In this document: piece after piece, positions 219 to 55,141 of the stretch
Layout of the letters: every line of letters starts with the position of its first letter
How positions within the stretch are numbered: the first letter of the stretch is position 1
Assembly: GCA_012523075.1 (NCBI GenBank)
Contig: JAAYJF010000061.1
Span: forward strand, 1-59,193
Length of the DNA: 59,193 nt
Direction of reading: 5' to 3'
Source: Clostridiales bacterium
Lineage (GTDB): Bacteria > Bacillota > Clostridia > Ch29
Notes under the pieces: model-generated
Database searches by the model: none
What the model was told of the DNA's origin: nothing
The model's input: only the letters and a program-made list of their open reading frames with translations
Made by a program: the position numbers and the translations under genes

Positions 219-425
219 TTACTTTATGCCGTCCTTAGTGTGCACGTATCCGATCTTTCCTTCCTCTATTTCCTTGATGGCCGCAGATACGCTCTTTGTA
301 GCGTCATGCTCATCGCTGCTTAGCTTCTGCTGGTTAAGCTGCCTGGCCCTTTTGGCCGCCAGCGCAACCAGAGTGTACCTGCTGTCGACTTTTTCTAACA
401 GTTTATTTATTGCTGGATACAGCAT
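219..425 (-). CDS. rpoZ: RNA polymerase omega subunit
   Basis: [30 protein letters not shown]. Start moved to ATG 425 (GGAGG RBS). Confidence 0.95.
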
Positions 426-438
426 TTCCCTTACCTCC

Positions 439-1044
439 TTACTGACCAATGAGTTTCATTTTGAACCTGTCCACCCTGCATTTTTCGGCGGTAATTATTG
501 AACGCAGCTTCTCAACGGCCGTATCAACCCGGTCGTTTATTATGAAATAATTATATCTTGATACGTAGTTGATCTCTTTGTAAGCTGATTCAAACCGGCG
601 GAGTATTTCTTTTTCGTCCTCGGTACCCCGCTTGGTTATCCTTGCCTTTAGCTCCTCCATGGAGGGGGGCAGTATAAACACGAAAACCCCCTCTTTATAC
701 TTTTCCTTGACCTGAAGGGCACCCTGTATGTCTATCTCCAGCAGCACGTCCCTGCCCTGATGCAAGTTCTCCTCCACATACCTTCTCGGAGTACCGTAGT
801 AATTGCCGTAGACTTCCGCGTATTCAATAAACCCGTCCTTGCTTATCATATCCAGGAATTCTTCCCGGGATATAAAAAAATAATTCTTACCGTGAACTTC
901 TCCGTCCCTAGGCAGTCGTGTTGTGTTGGATATTGATACAACTATATCTTTCTTTGTTTCCAGCAGCCCTTTGCAAATGGTTCCTTTGCCCGCCCCGGAG
1001 GGGCCGGATACTACTACAAGCAGGCCTCTTCCTTCCATACTCAT
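439..1044 (-). CDS. gmk: Guanylate kinase
   Basis: P-loop [18 protein letters not shown] and YYGTP motifs. Confidence 0.97.
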
Positions 1045-1313
1045 TCACTGCCCACCGTACTGTCCGAGGTATCCTTTGTGGACAGCCTGTGTGCAACGGT
1101 CTCCGGCTGAACTGCCGAAAGAATAATATGATCGCTGTCGGTAATTATTACGGCCCTGGTCCGCCTGCCATAGGTAGCGTCAATCAGCATGCCACGCTCC
1201 CTCGCGTCCTGGATTATTCTCTTTATTGGCGCCGATTCCGGGCTTACTATTGCTATAAGCCTGTTTGCCGAAACCATATTCCCAAACCCTATATTTATAA
1301 GCTTCATGTCCAC
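1041..1313 (-). CDS. remA: Extracellular matrix regulator RemA (DUF370)
   Basis: [10 protein letters not shown]...[18 protein letters not shown]; sits between yloC and gmk. GTG 1313 lies 7 nt after GGAGG. Confidence 0.93.
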
Positions 1314-1325
1314 TGCCAAACCTCC

Positions 1326-2219
1326 CTATTCAATATTTTGGATTTGCTCCCTAACCTTTTCAAGCTGGGACTTTATCTCGATGACCGCCTTGGAAATATG
1401 TAAATCATTAGCCTTGGAACCTATCGTGTTTACCTCCCGGTGCATCTCCTGCACCAGAAAATCAAGCTTCCTTCCTATAGTACCTCCACCGTCTAGTATA
1501 TCATGCATCTGTGAAGCGTGACTCCTTAACCGGACCAGTTCTTCATCGATATTGCTCCTGTCCGCGAATATCAATACCTCCTGGTAAACCCTATCACTGT
1601 CAAGGTCTATCCCGTCGGCAAGGACTTCCAGTCTCTTCTCCAGCCTGTCCCGGTATTCCTCTACTATAAATGCTGCCCTTTTTTCTATTTCCGATACTTC
1701 TTTGTCTATGGTTTCCAGCTTTTTTAGTATGTCCTGCTTTAGGTTTTGGCCCTCCTGCCTGCGCATGTCTACAAGTATATCCACAGCCTGCTCCAGGGCG
1801 CAAGAAAACTTCTGCCACAGCTTTTCTTCGTCTGATTCCTCCTGTTTTGCCATTACAACATCCGGAAAGGTAGCAATTAGCGAAAAGGGTATGTCACCCT
1901 TATGGCCCAGGTCTTCCTTCAGTTCCTTCAAGGCATTGTAATAGGTCCGCGCCAGCTGGCTGTTCACCTTGACATCCTGCTCCTTTAGCTCCCAGCTGTC
2001 GTAGGAGACATACACGTCCACCCTGCCCCTGGATACCCGAGACTGCACATATCGCCTTATCCTGTCCTCCAAAAAGGATAGGTTTTTGGGCATTCTTATT
2101 GAAAAATCGCTATACCTATGGTTTACCGAACGGACTTCCACCGATATGGACGTGTTCCCTGTGCTAAACTCTCCTCTGCCAAATCCGGTCATACTGTTTA
2201 CCATTTTTGTTTTGTCCAT
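1326..2219 (-). CDS. yloC: YicC/YloC family endoribonuclease
   Basis: SMTGFGR, RSVNHRY, GRKLDFLVQEMHREVNTIGSK and the EQIQNIE terminus. Confidence 0.96.
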   Translation of the reverse strand: MDKTKMVNSMTGFGRGEFSTGNTSISVEVRSVNHRYSDFSIRMPKNLSFLEDRIRRYVQSRVSRGRVDVYVSYDSWELKEQDVKVNSQLARTYYNALKELKEDLGHKGDIPFSLIATFPDVVMAKQEESDEEKLWQKFSCALEQAVDILVDMRRQEGQNLKQDILKKLETIDKEVSEIEKRAAFIVEEYRDRLEKRLEVLADGIDLDSDRVYQEVLIFADRSNIDEELVRLRSHASQMHDILDGGGTIGRKLDFLVQEMHREVNTIGSKANDLHISKAVIEIKSQLEKVREQIQNIE

Positions 2220-9729: not shown

Positions 9730-9955
9730 AAAAAAAGTCCCTTCGCTTGGAAAGGGACGAGGACTACCCGCGGTACCACCCTGATTGGCTGCAATACCCA
9801 CTTAAAATGTACTGTAACGGGTAACCCCGGCTCGGCTTACTTTATTTTTTCAGCCTGCTGCTCCTGAGGGATTTTCACCGCCACACGCTACCGCATCGCA
9901 CCGTACCTGCAGCTCTCTGTTAACAGTTAACGGCTACTCTTCTCAATCATCGCAC
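9730..9955 (-). ncRNA. T-box riboswitch (Ile specifier AUC) with terminator
   Basis: Minus strand: GCGATGATTGAGAAGAGTAG, AGAGAG, GGTGCGA, GAAA-ATC specifier (9870-9872), T-box AATCAGGGTGGTACCGCG (about 9769-9786), terminator GTCCCTTC...GAAGGGAC-T run. Confidence 0.93.
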
Positions 9956-9979
9956 TAAAACTTGCAATTGTTTTATAGA

Positions 9980-13746: not shown

Positions 13747-13823
<77 letters not shown>

Positions 13824-14255: not shown

Positions 14256-14550
14256 TGTCGCTTAAAAGGGCAAAGCCCTAAGAATCTGCCTCTGTCAATC
14301 TAAACGTAGTGAAGAATCCGGCTTTGCCGTTCTGAACGTAGTGAAGAATCTTTTGCAATCAGACACAAGATCCTTCGTTTCACTCAGGATGACAGGCGTT
14401 ATGCAAGGTCCTTCGTTTCACTCAGGATGACAGGCGTTATGCAAGGTCCTTCGCTGCGCTCAGGATGACACGGCTATCGCTTAGTGTGACAACCACTTCG
14501 CTAGGGATAACACACCGGAAGATATAAAAAGTTTTGAATGCGCTATATAT
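14256..14550 (+). repeat. Composite REP-like element, copy 1
   Basis: Three forward units (TGYC...GAAGAATC type) face three or more reverse units (TCCTTCG..C.CTCAGGATGACA), including a perfect 38-bp tandem (14371-14446), then the tail CACCGGAAGATATAAA. Confidence 0.85.
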
Positions 14551-25478: not shown

Positions 25479-25532
25479 AAAGCGCACCACCTTATTATAT
25501 ATAACGTGATAATAATATTACATTACTTCACT

Positions 25533-25780
25533 TGTCATTCTGAAGGCGAAGCCTGAAGAATCCGGTTTTGCCGCTTAAGAACGCAGTGAAGAATCCAACG
25601 TCGTCGTTCTGAGGGCGAAGCCCGAAGAATCCGGCTTTGCGTTCTGAACGTAGTGAAGAATCTTCTAGGAGACAGACATAAGGTCCTTCGCTGCGCAAGG
25701 TCCTTCGCTACGCTCAGGATGACAAAGAGTTCGCTCAGGATGACACGCCAGAAGATGTAAAGCTTTAACACTTTATATAT
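25533..25780 (+). repeat. Composite REP-like element, copy 2
   Basis: Four forward units (e.g. TGTCATTCTGAAGGCGAAGCCTGAAGAATCC) face reverse units (GGTCCTTCGCTACGCTCAGGATGACA), then the tail CGCCAGAAGATGTAAAG. Confidence 0.88.
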
Positions 25781-50956: not shown

Positions 50957-50981
50957 ATAAAAGCGGGAAGATACCCGCTTT
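50957..50981 (-). terminator. Terminator of the chelatase-like gene
   Basis: AAAGCGGG-AAGATA-CCCGCTTT. Confidence 0.65.
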
Positions 50982-52185
50982 AAAGAACATCAACCGTATC
51001 CAGCCTCTCCATAAGCGCCTTTACAAGAAGGTCACTGTCCCCCCAGGGACCTATAATCACCGTATCTACATTCTCCGGAATATCTATTTTATCCAGAAGC
51101 CGGGGTAGAAGCCATTCGGTATCTAACCCTGGGTTCTCGAAGCCCGCCGCTACTATAACCAGTTTGCTTATTCCGGAATCCAGCAGATATTCCACCGCAT
51201 CTCCTATACCCGGCTGCCTATGCCTTAAGTAGGCAATCCTTATTTTTCTGCTCTCGTACCCATTCTTCATGATGCTTTCCTTTATTTTATCATAGAACAC
51301 CTGCTCACGGTTAACGGCCTGGGGATACTCATGCCGAACCCTTTTGCCGGTCCCCCTGGCCACCAGTACCACGCCCACCTGCTCCGGGCTTATCTCCTGG
51401 GTTTTTTCCAGAATGCCCTGCTCATAATAGGATACAAGCGCGTCATGATTCCATAGGGGAAAGGTAAAAAGTACCTCGGCGTCCATTCCACTGTTTTCTA
51501 TTACCTTGAGGATTTTTTTATCCACCACTTCCTTATAGGGTTGCTCCACCAGCAAGTTGTTTAAAACAACTATTTTGTTGTATCCGTCCTTTAAAATATC
51601 CTCCACCGTCGTTTCAATAAAGGGAGGCCCAAACAGGTTGGCACTGTACAGCCCGAAGTCTTCCCCAAGGGCCTCGCTCAGCTTGTTGTACAAATTCTCA
51701 CCGGTTCGTATGCATACGTTCCCGTCCATTCTTTTGATGTTCCTCTTCAATTGAAGAGCCTTAACCGGCATGTTCCACCACCTTACACCTCCAGCCCCGG
51801 CCTCTCTTTTTATATCCAGTCGGTACAAAGCGTTTTTGTAATGGTATTCGGTGATTTCCCCGGGGGAAAGGAGCAATATGGCCATTTCCTGTTTTCTGTC
51901 CGATGGGCTTATCTCCTCAATATCAATCCTGCCCGGGAAGGCGCTGACAAACACGCAGTAAAGAAGATACCCCAAAATCGCTGCCCCGGCGAAAATAAGC
52001 ACCACCCTCGTTTTTTTTCTGTGTTTTATAGTCAAAAGCACAAAAATAAAAAAGCATATACATAAAAGGGCAATTGTTATTATATGCCATATGCCGTGAA
52101 GCATCATAGCCGCTGCGACAATAATGCCGGTTAAGAATCCAATAAGTATCAGCGACAGGTATTCAAAACGCAACCAGATTTTCAC
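50980..52185 (-). CDS. Membrane-anchored class II chelatase-like (HemH/CbiX fold) protein
   Basis: Three N-terminal TM segments, then AILLLSPGE, PFIETTVEDILKDGYNKIVVL, GVVLVARG and IAYL...PGIGDAVEYL..SGISKLVIV (duplicated CbiX-like halves). Confidence 0.6.
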   Translation of the reverse strand: MKIWLRFEYLSLILIGFLTGIIVAAAMMLHGIWHIITIALLCICFFIFVLLTIKHRKKTRVVLIFAGAAILGYLLYCVFVSAFPGRIDIEEISPSDRKQEMAILLLSPGEITEYHYKNALYRLDIKREAGAGGVRWWNMPVKALQLKRNIKRMDGNVCIRTGENLYNKLSEALGEDFGLYSANLFGPPFIETTVEDILKDGYNKIVVLNNLLVEQPYKEVVDKKILKVIENSGMDAEVLFTFPLWNHDALVSYYEQGILEKTQEISPEQVGVVLVARGTGKRVRHEYPQAVNREQVFYDKIKESIMKNGYESRKIRIAYLRHRQPGIGDAVEYLLDSGISKLVIVAAGFENPGLDTEWLLPRLLDKIDIPENVDTVIIGPWGDSDLLVKALMERLDTVDVL

Positions 52186-52271: not shown

Positions 52272-52304
52272 AGAAATTATTATTTCTTTTATTTAGCGAA
52301 AAAA

Positions 52305-52883
52305 TTAGTCGGTAATCACTTCCACCATGGCCCCATTGCCAATACCAGCCGCATTCCCTTCCTCTATGTCTATGTGCATATCCAATGCAAAAGTGGGGGA
52401 CACCCTGATTAGTACATTTTCAAATACCAGACCCCTCATGCCTTCCACCCTAACCTTGACCCTCTGGAAGTCCTCAACACCAAAGGCCTTTGCATCATCA
52501 GGATGCATATGAATGTGTCTTGCCGCCACTATAACGCCGTATTCCAGGTCAACCTCCCCCTTTGGTCCGACAAGCTTAACGCCGGGAGTGCCTTCGATAT
52601 CTCCGGAATCCCTCACCGGAACCTTCAGTCCCAATTTATAGGCGTCCGACACCGATATTTCAATTTGTGTCTCCTTCCTTACGGGACCTAAAATCCTCAC
52701 ACCCTTAAGCGTTCCTTTTGGCCCAACTATGTCCACCTTTTCTTCACAAGCGTATTGCCCAGGCTGGGACAGGACCTTGAATTCGGTCAGTTCATGGCCA
52801 GCGCCAAAAAGCTTGTCAAGATGTTCCTGCGTTACGTGCAAATGCCTATTGGACAGTCCAACGGGTACTTTTTTGCCGCTCAT
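52305..52883 (-). CDS. pduL: Phosphate propanoyltransferase / PduL-type phosphotransacylase
   Basis: VPVGLSNRHLH, LSQPGQYA, VRILGP.R, ARHIHM, MHIDIEEGNA. Confidence 0.93.
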   Translation of the reverse strand: MSGKKVPVGLSNRHLHVTQEHLDKLFGAGHELTEFKVLSQPGQYACEEKVDIVGPKGTLKGVRILGPVRKETQIEISVSDAYKLGLKVPVRDSGDIEGTPGVKLVGPKGEVDLEYGVIVAARHIHMHPDDAKAFGVEDFQRVKVRVEGMRGLVFENVLIRVSPTFALDMHIDIEEGNAAGIGNGAMVEVITD

Positions 52884-53039
52884 GTAAACTCCTCCTTACT
52901 CCTTCGTTATTATTGGTTAACAATCCTTATAGCTGCGGATTGAACTATACACTTTATTTTACCAGATTGCCCGATGCATTGCCAACTACCTTGTCCCTAT
53001 ATATTTATTATCCACCTAAGCAAAGTAAATCCTGTATTT

Positions 53040-53068
53040 AAAAAACAGGGGCCAAAACGTCCCTGTTT
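53040..53068 (-). terminator. Terminator of the DUF1858-like gene
   Basis: Minus strand AAACAGGGAC-GTTTTG-GCCCCTGTTT followed by further Ts. Confidence 0.7.
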
Positions 53069-53258
53069 AAGAATACATCTTATTTAATTCTTCCACTATT
53101 ACATCGGCTTCTACGCCATAGGTTTGAGCTGCCCGCTCAATGCTCTTGTACAGAGCCCCGCCTCACCCAAAACATCGAATTCCGTACTTGTCAAATACTT
53201 CCTCGGCGTCGGGATGCTGTTTTAGTATATCCTTAATCTTGCTTTCTTTGCTATACAA
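53067..53258 (-). CDS. Probable selenoprotein: DUF1858-like redox domain with CxxU motif (63 aa)
   Basis: GGAGGTG RBS and TTG start; MYSKESKIKDILKQHPDAEEVFDKYGIRCFG-U-GGALYKSIERAAQTYGVEADVIVEELNKMYS*. The TGA at 53165-53163 aligns with the second Cys of the family CxGC; two hairpins follow it. Confidence 0.8.
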
Positions 53259-53341
53259 ATATAACACCTCCAGATAATCCTGCTCCTATTATTATACTAC
53301 GGATTATTCGCTATGGATATACTTACTGCCGTTTTTCGGTC

Positions 53342-53938
53342 CTAACGACAGTAAAAGTCGTGGTTACCTATGGTTGTCACATAGTTTAGTTCCTCCTTGA
53401 ACCATTTGGTCGCCCTGCTGCCGGCAAGGCTCTCATATATAAAGAATTGTGCATTACCAACAGTTTGTCCATTTTCGCCGATAGGTCTTACACCCTTAAG
53501 GGCTTCCCTGGCAGCCCTATATGACTGCTCTGAGGGTTCCTTACTATCCCATCCGCCATCGGTTATCGGCTGGAACTGACCTTTTTGGAATATTACCCCC
53601 TTTATGGTATTTGGGAATCTTTCGCTCATGGCCCTGTTTAATACAACAGCACCCACTGCTACCTTGCCATCATAGGGCTCATAACGGGCCTCGCATTCAA
53701 TTATTTTAGCCAGCAGATAGAGGTCCTCTGCATTTGTACCGATATTCCCCCTGCTTACCGTGGTTTTGGGGGCTGCTACGGCAGGCATCATTCGCTGTTC
53801 CTGCAAAAGGGCTACCGCCGGCGCATCCAGGTAGGCATCCTCTACCGTTTCAGTACACTCCTTACCCCCTGTGAACAGTATCGTAATATTAAGCAAAACC
53901 ACAGCCCATAATACTGTTCTTCGTATTTCTATCATCAC
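53342..53938 (-). CDS. Cell wall hydrolase (Hydrolase_2 / SleB-like lytic transglycosylase)
   Basis: Signal peptide, LLAKIIECEARYEPYDGKVAVGAVVLNR, FPNTIKGVIFQKGQF, IGNHDF. Confidence 0.9.
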   Translation of the reverse strand: MMIEIRRTVLWAVVLLNITILFTGGKECTETVEDAYLDAPAVALLQEQRMMPAVAAPKTTVSRGNIGTNAEDLYLLAKIIECEARYEPYDGKVAVGAVVLNRAMSERFPNTIKGVIFQKGQFQPITDGGWDSKEPSEQSYRAAREALKGVRPIGENGQTVGNAQFFIYESLAGSRATKWFKEELNYVTTIGNHDFYCR

Positions 53939-53981
53939 TTCTTCCCCCTAATACTGGTAGCTTTATCCAACACAAGTTAGA

Positions 53982-54010
53982 ACTATACCAGATTTTAGTA
54001 TTAATTGCAA
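53982..54010 (-). promoter_or_regulatory. Putative sigmaA promoter of the cell wall hydrolase
   Basis: TTGCAA-17 nt-TATAGT with an extended TG. Confidence 0.6.
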
Positions 54011-54052
54011 CCTCTTATCTTTATATCCACTTTTCATAAGAAATATAACCAT

Positions 54053-54084
54053 AAAAAAAGACCGCCCTGTCGCGGTCAAAAAAA
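54053..54084. terminator. Terminator downstream of PNP
   Basis: GACCGC-CCTGTC-GCGGTC flanked by A runs. Confidence 0.65.
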
Positions 54085-54124
54085 TGGGGAAATTCCGTAT
54101 TAGTTTTGATATTTTAGTTCCCCT

Positions 54125-54308
54125 AAATATCACACATTTAACACTTTACATCTCCTAGTATGTCATCCCCAGCAAAGCGAAGGATCTTCAGGTTGTTGAA
54201 ACATAAGATTCTTCACTGCGTTCTTAAGCGGCAAAGCCGGATCCTTCGGACTTCGTCCTCTTAAATGACAAAGTCAGCTCCTTTGGGCTTCGCTTCTTCG
54301 TAATGTCA
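54125..54308 (-). repeat. Composite REP-like element, copy 3 (inverted relative to copies 1 and 2)
   Basis: The reverse complement of 54206-54270 (TGTCATTTAAGAGGACGAAGTCCGAAGGATCCGGCTTTGCCGCTTAAGAACGCAGTGAAGAATCT) closely matches 25533-25596. The opposing unit is at 54161-54187, followed by the tail TACTAGGAGATGTAAAG. Confidence 0.85.
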
Positions 54309-54328
54309 GGTAAAGGAATGTGATACTA

Positions 54329-55141
54329 TTAATGCATTATATATAGTATCTCCTTTAGCAGCCTTATAAACTTCTCCTGTGCCTTTTTACCCACTTCCAG
54401 TACTTCCCGGTGGTTGGGCGCATGGTCCAGCACGCCAGCTGCCATGTTGGTTATGCAGGAGATGCCCAGCACCTTCATGCCACAGTGGACCGCAGTGATA
54501 ACCTCCGGCACCGTGGACATGCCCACCGCGTCTCCTCCTATGGTACCAAGCATCCTTATCTCTGCAGGGGTTTCGTAGCTGGGGCCGGTGACACCGCAAT
54601 AAACTCCCTGCCTTAATTCAATCTCTAGCTCTTTGGCACAGGCTACAGCAGTTTTTATCAAATCCCTGTCATAGGCATTTGTCATGCCGGGGAATCGCTC
54701 GCCCATCTCGTCCACGTTTGCTCCTATAAGCGGGTTATACCCCATAAGATTAATGTGGTCGGTTATTATCATCAGGTCACCGGGTTTAAAGCCCCTGTTT
54801 ATACCCCCGGCAGCGTTGGTGACAATCAACCGTTCCACTCCCAGTAGCCTCATAACCCGTACCGGGAATACCACCTGCTCCATTGGATAGCCTTCGTAAT
54901 AATGGAACCTCCCCTGCATTGCAATAACCCTCTGTCCCATCAGTTCCCCTGCCACCAGACGTCCTGCATGACCCTCCACCGTCGACATCGGGAACCCCGG
55001 GATTTCCGAATAATCAATCACCTTTTTGCCTTCTATGTACTCTGCCATCTGCCCCAGCCCCGAGCCCAATATCAAGCCAACGGCGGGCCGGGTATCAAGC
55101 CTTTCCTCTATGAACTCCGCTGCCTTCCTATATTTCTCCAT
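54329..55141 (-). CDS. punA: Purine-nucleoside phosphorylase (trimeric PunA/XapA type)
   Basis: LILGSGLG, STVEGHAG, QGRFHYYEG, TNAAGG, GPSYETPAE, VGMSTVPE. Start ATG 55141. Confidence 0.94.
   Translation of the reverse strand: MEKYRKAAEFIEERLDTRPAVGLILGSGLGQMAEYIEGKKVIDYSEIPGFPMSTVEGHAGRLVAGELMGQRVIAMQGRFHYYEGYPMEQVVFPVRVMRLLGVERLIVTNAAGGINRGFKPGDLMIITDHINLMGYNPLIGANVDEMGERFPGMTNAYDRDLIKTAVACAKELEIELRQGVYCGVTGPSYETPAEIRMLGTIGGDAVGMSTVPEVITAVHCGMKVLGISCITNMAAGVLDHAPNHREVLEVGKKAQEKFIRLLKEILYIMH

Follow-up and report, generated by a model that had tools for sequence, protein, structure and literature searches.

A small DUF1858 gene with an in-frame UGA, probably a selenoprotein gene, in a Clostridiales bacterium

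We analysed a 63-codon gene on the minus strand of a 59,193-nucleotide stretch of DNA from a Clostridiales bacterium (contig JAAYJF010000061.1 of assembly GCA_012523075.1), the whole of which is called the window here. In all likelihood this is a real, monocistronic selenoprotein gene that is decoded at its in-frame UGA by way of the second of two hairpins that follow the codon, and a small redox or electron relay is the most likely role of its product. The analysis demonstrated that the TGA is conserved, that it aligns with Cys codons in homologous genes, that the coding sequence after it is under purifying selection and carries a conserved hairpin specific to the Sec forms, that the protein shares the fold of its family, and that selA, selB and tRNA-Sec are present in the genome. 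The actual insertion of selenium, the redox chemistry and the redox partner are what we infer, and they are worded conditionally below.

The gene and its protein family

The features of the gene, in window positions, are these.

53067..53258, minus strand: predicted DUF1858/TIGR03980 selenoprotein coding sequence of 63 codons, with a TTG start at 53258-53256 and a TAA stop at 53069-53067, translated with TGA as U
53163..53165, minus strand: in-frame TGA, codon 32, predicted Sec32 of C29-x-x-U32; TGA in the same column in 24 of 24 orthologues (3 families), TGT or TGC in 100 of 100 Cys-form homologues
53172..53174, minus strand: Cys29 codon TGT, partner of Sec32; the C29 column is invariant in the family alignment
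53265..53271, minus strand: ribosome-binding site GGAGGTG, 6 nt 5' of the start codon, read in the sequence
53291..53296, minus strand: candidate -10 box TATAAT, read in the sequence
53142..53156, minus strand: first hairpin, GCUCU-GUACA-AGAGC, whose loop starts 11 nt after the UGA; lineage-specific
53124..53140, minus strand: second hairpin, the predicted SECIS, with a 6-bp stem UUGAGC/GCUCAA and the loop GGGCA at 53134-53130, which starts 28 nt after the UGA
53037..53068, minus strand: terminator-like stem-loop AAACAGGG...CCCUGUUU with a U-run after it, found by folding; it overlaps the stop codon

A preliminary description made from the sequence alone had proposed that the ORF track misses this gene, and a table-11 listing of open reading frames does give only a 34-aa stub at 53163..53267. 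The GGAGGTG ribosome-binding site, the TTG start, the lone TGA at codon 32 and the 31 further open codons that lead to the TAA were all found where that description had placed them. The TGA stands in the context GIRCFG-TGA-GGA, and residues 29-34 read C-F-G-U-G-G. GGAGGTG is also present in 11 of the 12 printed upstream regions of orthologues, the remaining one having GGGGGGTG, and all 12 orthologues examined begin at the corresponding position, with TTG, ATG or GTG as the start codon. The gene had also been credited with a terminator of its own. Folding places a stem-loop and a U-run 3' of the stop (-11.3 kcal/mol, z -2.2, with 8 of 200 shuffles equally good), though a simple promoter and terminator scan left both the promoter and the terminator of the small gene unflagged and no -35 hexamer passes in it. 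When a collection of 5.8 billion proteins was searched, the single match was a 36-aa fragment of 90% identity.

The proposal of a DUF1858-like CxxU redox selenoprotein is borne out at the level of the family, as both relevant models match the read-through protein across the TGA with scores over their curated cut-offs. It reaches 41.4 bits with PF08984 (DUF1858, Pfam; cut-off 32.2) and 57.7 bits with TIGR03980 (NCBIfam; cut-off 44.95), the latter match running from residue 3 to residue 59 over model positions 2-58 of 58 and so spanning the TGA. The Pfam model ScdA_N is passed as well, at 35.3 bits against a cut-off of 32.5. A sequence profile of the family matches the NMR structures 2K53 (E 6e-29) and 2K5E, as well as the N-terminal domain of ScdA (9R7J, E 2e-7). 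The AlphaFold model, made with a 22-row alignment, has a pLDDT of 91.1 and consists of four helices, with C29 and U32 in the loop between helix 2 and helix 3. Superposed on 2K53 it gives a TM score of 0.89 and an rmsd of 1.2 A, which makes it a four-helix DUF1858 fold. The paired redox residues expected of the family are there too, since C29 and position 32 are invariant alignment columns when U is read as C. Taken as sequence and predicted fold, these results support the assignment of the gene as a putative read-through CxxU member of DUF1858/TIGR03980. The further statement that the family carries CxGC at the motif site agrees with what we see, C-x-G-C being found in 96 of the 100 Cys forms.

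Looking at the known members of the family helps to place the gene. The Cys-form DUF1858/TIGR03980 proteins 2K53 (A3DK08, Clostridium thermocellum) and 2K5E have a like fold (TM 0.89 and 0.81), equal length and their two redox residues at the same columns as here. They differ in that the residue predicted to be Sec here is a second Cys, which is followed by P-S or M-A and not by G-G-A, and the Sec forms are further set apart by the SECIS hairpin within their coding sequence and by forming a separate clade. A homologous domain, ScdA_N, is also found in YtfE/ScdA (RIC; PDB 5FNY, 9R7J and 9J47), with a TM score of 0.71 to 5FNY. However, the di-iron hemerythrin-like domain of those proteins is absent here, and ScdA has a vicinal CC where this protein has CxxU. 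According to the available part of PMC12412097, the N-terminal domain of ScdA, which contains Cys30 and Cys31, is non-catalytic and boosts the activity of the di-iron domain.

An association with hybrid cluster protein is a feature of the name of the TIGR03980 model and is no requirement for membership of the domain family. Prismane-family genes occur on contigs C156, C25 and C123 of the home genome, and none of them lies beside the small gene. The Prismane-family match on C25 (hybrid cluster / CO dehydrogenase type; 237-1844, minus strand, 562.7 bits) has one TGA and one TAG inside it and may be a broken gene or another recoded gene. The home genome also holds a Cys-form paralogue of the small gene with the motif C-I-G-C, at C57:28162-28341 on the minus strand, between dnaB and an FAD-dependent HI0933-like oxidoreductase.

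Conservation of the UGA and the choice of hairpin

The preliminary description had suggested aligning the TGA with homologous genes, and it had pointed out that a TGA confined to one strain would speak against a selenoprotein, as would relaxed selection after the TGA, the mark of a simple nonsense pseudogene. Neither was found. A search of 61 related genomes returned 12 orthologues with exactly one TGA, and a wider draw of the class, in which 399 genomes were scored and 2 were not, brought the number of TGA orthologues to 24 from three families. These are spread over 10 of the 11 genomes of the home family f1 (including the home genome), 13 of the 15 of family f9, and one genome of family f58. 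The TGA is retained down to about 44% identity among the 24 genomes. All 24 Sec forms have the motif C-[FY]-G-U-G-G (F in 23 and Y in one), and all of them stay open for 30-32 codons past the TGA and finish at the same end point.

For comparison we used 100 Cys-form homologues, made up of 18 from relatives, 80 from named genomes (380 were confirmed there and 80 kept as a control set) and 2 paralogues. The codon aligned with the TGA is a Cys codon in every one of them, TGT in 51 and TGC in 49. An alignment of Sec with Cys at one codon is a classic pair. The search of named genomes gave only Cys forms because its pattern was built across the Cys codon, and with just 11 genomes in the order, a search at that level yielded no further members. 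A tree of residues 8-59 of the 24 Sec and 100 Cys forms places the Sec forms in one clade with a support of 1.0.

Selection after the TGA is purifying, with a median dN/dS of 0.10 (40 usable of 45 pairs). The median before the TGA is 0.064, from the 11 usable of 45 pairs, the others being saturated in dS. Between the home genome and its nearest relative, G001, the downstream half of the gene has 10 synonymous and 3 non-synonymous codon differences. Elsewhere in the home genome TGA is a normal stop, ending 180 of the 900 open frames of at least 300 codons.

The two perfect hairpins that had been described after the UGA were recovered at the same positions and distances, and both are part of the minimum free energy fold. 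Of the candidate SECIS that had been proposed from them, only the second hairpin stood up to comparison. Folded alone, it has an energy of -7.8 kcal/mol, which none of 200 shuffles equalled, and the first has -7.2 kcal/mol (2 of 200 equally good). Folding of the region after the UGA had been put forward as a check on the proposal, and its outcome is mixed, as each hairpin is unusual alone but the 71-nt region as a whole is not (z -0.86, 45 of 200 shuffles equally good). An Rfam scan of 52950-53350 gave no match at E<=10. The significance of the case for the SECIS and the TGA comes from the comparison with relatives and not from the signal in a single sequence.

The bacterial SECIS model of Zhang and Gladyshev, as set out in the available part of PMC13188914, has a loop of 3-9 nt with a G in its first two positions, an upper stem of 4-16 bp and a minimum free energy of at most -7.5 kcal/mol, and it places the loop 16-37 nt after the UGA. 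The second hairpin fits all of this with a loop of 5 nt that begins with GG, a stem of 6 bp, a distance of 28 nt and its -7.8 kcal/mol. It differs from that model in having no match to a curated Rfam family, and binding of SelB to it is a prediction here.

Across the 24 orthologues 91.7% of the cells of the second hairpin helix are paired, and RNAalifold recovers the stem. Two of its pairs vary in a compensatory way, the pair 36-50 being UA in 16 orthologues, AU in 6 and CG in one, and the pair 38-48 AU in 18, GC in 2 and GU in 2. The number of independent covariation events is small, since the 6 orthologues with AU are closely related and CG comes from a single genome. As the hairpin region also encodes a conserved E-[RQ]-A-A, the Cys forms were used as a control. 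Of the 24 Sec forms, 20 have every pair of the 5-bp core, three have four pairs and one has three. Only 1 of the 100 Cys forms has every pair, and 75 of them have two pairs or fewer. The second hairpin thus goes with the UGA rather than with the protein sequence.

It could be argued that the first hairpin (53156-53142) is the functional SECIS instead, either by itself or jointly with the second. This would be in keeping with the presence of both in the minimum free energy fold and with the conservation of the first hairpin in the home family, where 9 of the 10 sequences have it intact and the other, G006, keeps 3 of 5 pairs. However, its loop starts 11 nt after the UGA, nearer than the 16-37 nt that the published model allows. 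In the 24 orthologues just 61.7% of its helix cells pair, and every family f9 sequence has the hairpin broken although it keeps the UGA. Judged by this comparison the first hairpin is probably not a SelB-binding element, and we regard a role for it, alone or jointly with the second, as unlikely.

Selenocysteine machinery and rival explanations of the gene

The home genome consists of 185 contigs with a total of 2.03 Mb and an estimated completeness of 99.66%, and it has no contig shorter than 1512 bp. DNA of the window is found in many anaerobic-digester and bioreactor metagenomes, and we therefore take the genome to be a metagenome bin. The earlier suggestion that the organism uses selenium, and the accompanying proposal to look for selA, selB, selC and selD, were followed up in this genome with a result that is positive in all parts but one. 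It has selA (602.8 bits) with selB adjoining it (342.5 bits, or 365.4 with a neighbouring in-frame stretch), and a tRNA-Sec of 70.7 bits with the anticodon TCA. It also has grdA and fdhA, each with one in-frame TGA, as well as grdB. The exception is selD, which was not found in the 185-contig bin with the family model (the best match, at 94 bits, is an AIR-synthase-like protein), by tblastn with the selD of the same genus, or by synteny with the selD loci of six relatives and the two loci of G001. As selD is missing from this assembly, selenium use is for this organism something we infer rather than something shown.

Looking at where selD lies in the relatives gives an idea of what may have happened. 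In five of them (G002, G004, G005, G009 and G010) it has a comEA-like gene on one side and an alanine symporter on the other, and selA-selB follow shortly downstream. The corresponding region of the home genome (C97:3044-8569, outside the window) has the comEA-like gene, the symporter, selA and selB, and the selD slot between the first two is empty. The selD of the relatives is itself TGA-bearing and scores over the cut-off in 10 of the 21 genomes searched, including 9 of the 10 relatives of the same family. In G001 the slot is empty as well, and two TGA-bearing selD copies lie elsewhere, on contigs that carry the ~130-bp repeat of the lineage and otherwise have no counterpart in the home genome. 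Because the slot is empty in both genomes, and the G001 copies are on contigs with the genus's own repeat, the relocation of selD preceded the split of the two. Since the slot was emptied before that split and the selenoprotein genes show neither damage nor loss of constraint after it, it is highly probable that the missing selD was left unassembled or unbinned. More generally, the empty selD slot warns that whether a gene is called present or absent in a metagenome bin is not enough to decide on selenium use.

The interspersed repeat, of some 100-130 bp, occurs in the window at 54140-54340, 14270-14394 and 25532-25664, and blastn finds 97 hits to it on 56 of the 185 contigs of the home genome. 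Metagenome DNA contigs break at a copy of it in the window, and each of the two selD copies of G001 has one next to it. Much of the fragmentation of the assembly is probably due to this repeat.

The missing selD leads to the one alternative for the gene as a whole that has some weight, namely that an ancestral selenoprotein gene is now dead. With selD lost there would be no selenophosphate and no Sec-tRNA, and translation would stop at codon 32. The failure to find selD, and the emptiness of a slot that is filled in five relatives, are what one would expect in that case. However, the absence of a gene from a bin of 185 contigs without any contig below 1512 bp is weak evidence, and the equally empty slot of G001 goes together with two TGA-bearing copies elsewhere, beside the same repeat. 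The downstream half of the small gene has also remained constrained since the two genomes split, as the 10 synonymous against 3 non-synonymous codons indicate, and the genome has intact selA, selB and tRNA-Sec genes, with a single in-frame TGA retained in each of grdA and fdhA. We give a dead gene little probability, and the other two explanations have far less. UGA might be decoded outside the Sec system, either through recoding to Trp or Gly across the genome or through near-cognate read-through, and here too the unseen selD would fit. Against this, TGA ends a fifth part of the long open frames of the genome (the 180 of 900 above), the orthologues of G006 and G058 use TGA as their own stop, the codon aligns with Cys, and tRNA-Sec, selA and selB are present, which makes such decoding very improbable.

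A further alternative is that a Cys-type DUF1858 gene has become a pseudogene through a simple nonsense mutation, and the 34-aa stub of table 11 and the lone 36-aa fragment among 5.8 billion proteins are what such a pseudogene would leave. This is at odds with the presence of the TGA in 24 genomes from three families, at identities as low as about 44%, with the dN/dS of about 0.10 after it, with a Sec-specific hairpin showing compensatory changes, and with the conserved frame and stop position, and its probability is close to nil. With the TGA conserved, the sequence after it constrained, and TGA otherwise a normal stop, both a nonsense pseudogene and a change of the genetic code are for practical purposes excluded, and a selenoprotein gene in use is the reading with which we continue.

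Gene neighbourhood, proposed role and meaning

If the gene is expressed as we propose, the ribosome would start at the TTG at 53258 and, on reaching the UGA at codon 32, would meet the hairpin at 53140-53124, whose G-rich loop 28 nt downstream would recruit SelB with Sec-tRNA(Sec). Sec would be inserted and translation would continue to the TAA, giving a 63-residue protein with the four-helix DUF1858 fold. By analogy with CxxC and CxxU proteins, C29-F-G-U32 in the loop between helices 2 and 3 would most likely cycle between the selenol/thiol and the selenenylsulfide state, and a role as a small redox or electron relay would follow from this cycling.

The surroundings of the gene in the window give no redox hint, its neighbours being a SleB-like cell-wall hydrolase, PduL and a membrane-anchored ferrochelatase-like protein. 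The last of these (50980-52185, minus strand, downstream of pduL) is a protein of 401 aa with hydrophobic N-terminal segments and a weak ferrochelatase-family match (31.9 bits, cut-off 27). All 10 loci of the home family have the SleB-like hydrolase upstream and 7 of them have PduL downstream, PduL also being found there at 4 loci of f9 (genus g13), and this synteny is no functional lead. Metatranscriptome contigs from three runs over 52300-54300 cover pduL and leave the small gene without cover, which is uninformative either way. The RNA contigs over pduL (52305-52985) end at 52916-52926, just inside a predicted sigma-70-type promoter at 52985-52956, and this suggests that transcription of pduL is independent of the small gene. 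Farther off, the window has a T-box leader (129.1 bits) at 9750-9959 and a tRNA-Pro with the anticodon GGG at 13747-13823, both on the minus strand.

The loci of the other two families are more suggestive. At 8 of the 24 Sec loci, all in family f9 and from four genera, the Sec gene comes directly after a gene for a TrxR-like flavoprotein and before the SCIFF radical-SAM maturase.

f9 loci with TrxR-like and SCIFF neighbours: L150-L152, L155, L157, L159, L160, L163

The TrxR-like flavoprotein scores 197 and 182 bits with TIGR01292, which is under the equivalog cut-off, and keeps the redox motif CATC. At the one locus of the third family, f58 (L161), the Sec gene lies between Rex and a CoA-disulfide-reductase-like gene. 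A reductase neighbourhood is thus seen at 9 of the 24 Sec loci, in about two independent contexts, against none of the 100 Cys-form loci, and it is absent at the locus of the home genome. We also looked in the home genome for a counterpart of the TrxR-like neighbour and rejected what we found, as there is no close one and the best match is 31% identical and lies in the grd cluster.

From the neighbourhoods in these two other families, the partner of the protein may be a pyridine-nucleotide disulfide oxidoreductase. This could be taken further, to a view of the C-F-G-U-G-G clade as a selenium-based 'mini-thioredoxin', a small carrier that would be reduced by its own pyridine-nucleotide disulfide oxidoreductase. 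We put this forward tentatively, as an idea that the gene order hints at and to which we give a low probability, but if true it would be the first defined biochemical role for the DUF1858 domain.

That rare Sec-substituted members of DUF1858 are on record had been noted in the preliminary description, and this is correct. In the available parts of PMC9312934 and PMC13188914, both of which are catalogues of prokaryotic selenoproteins, a DUF1858 (PF08984) CxxU selenoprotein is listed with WP_012065717.1 as its representative. It shares with our gene the Pfam domain, the type of CxxU motif and the form of a small stand-alone protein, and it may belong to the C-F-G-U-G-G clade. The main text of the primary papers cited by both reviews (PMC2398784 and PMC5029168) does not contain the term 'DUF1858', and the supplements may hold the original description. 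A full-text search for 'DUF1858' returned no title or abstract opening on the function of the domain, and 'TIGR03980' was returned only under an unrelated title. As the DUF1858 CxxU protein is already in two reviews, the finding at the level of the family is known and the gene is an unannotated member of it. What is new here, the delimiting of the C-F-G-U-G-G clade and of its SECIS, is a modest addition.

For the biology of this anaerobic-digester bacterium the finding means at least one selenoprotein more than the annotation gives. For the family, the Sec clade of DUF1858, well delimited and with a clean SECIS, is a handle on the function of the domain, because Sec marks the catalytic residue.
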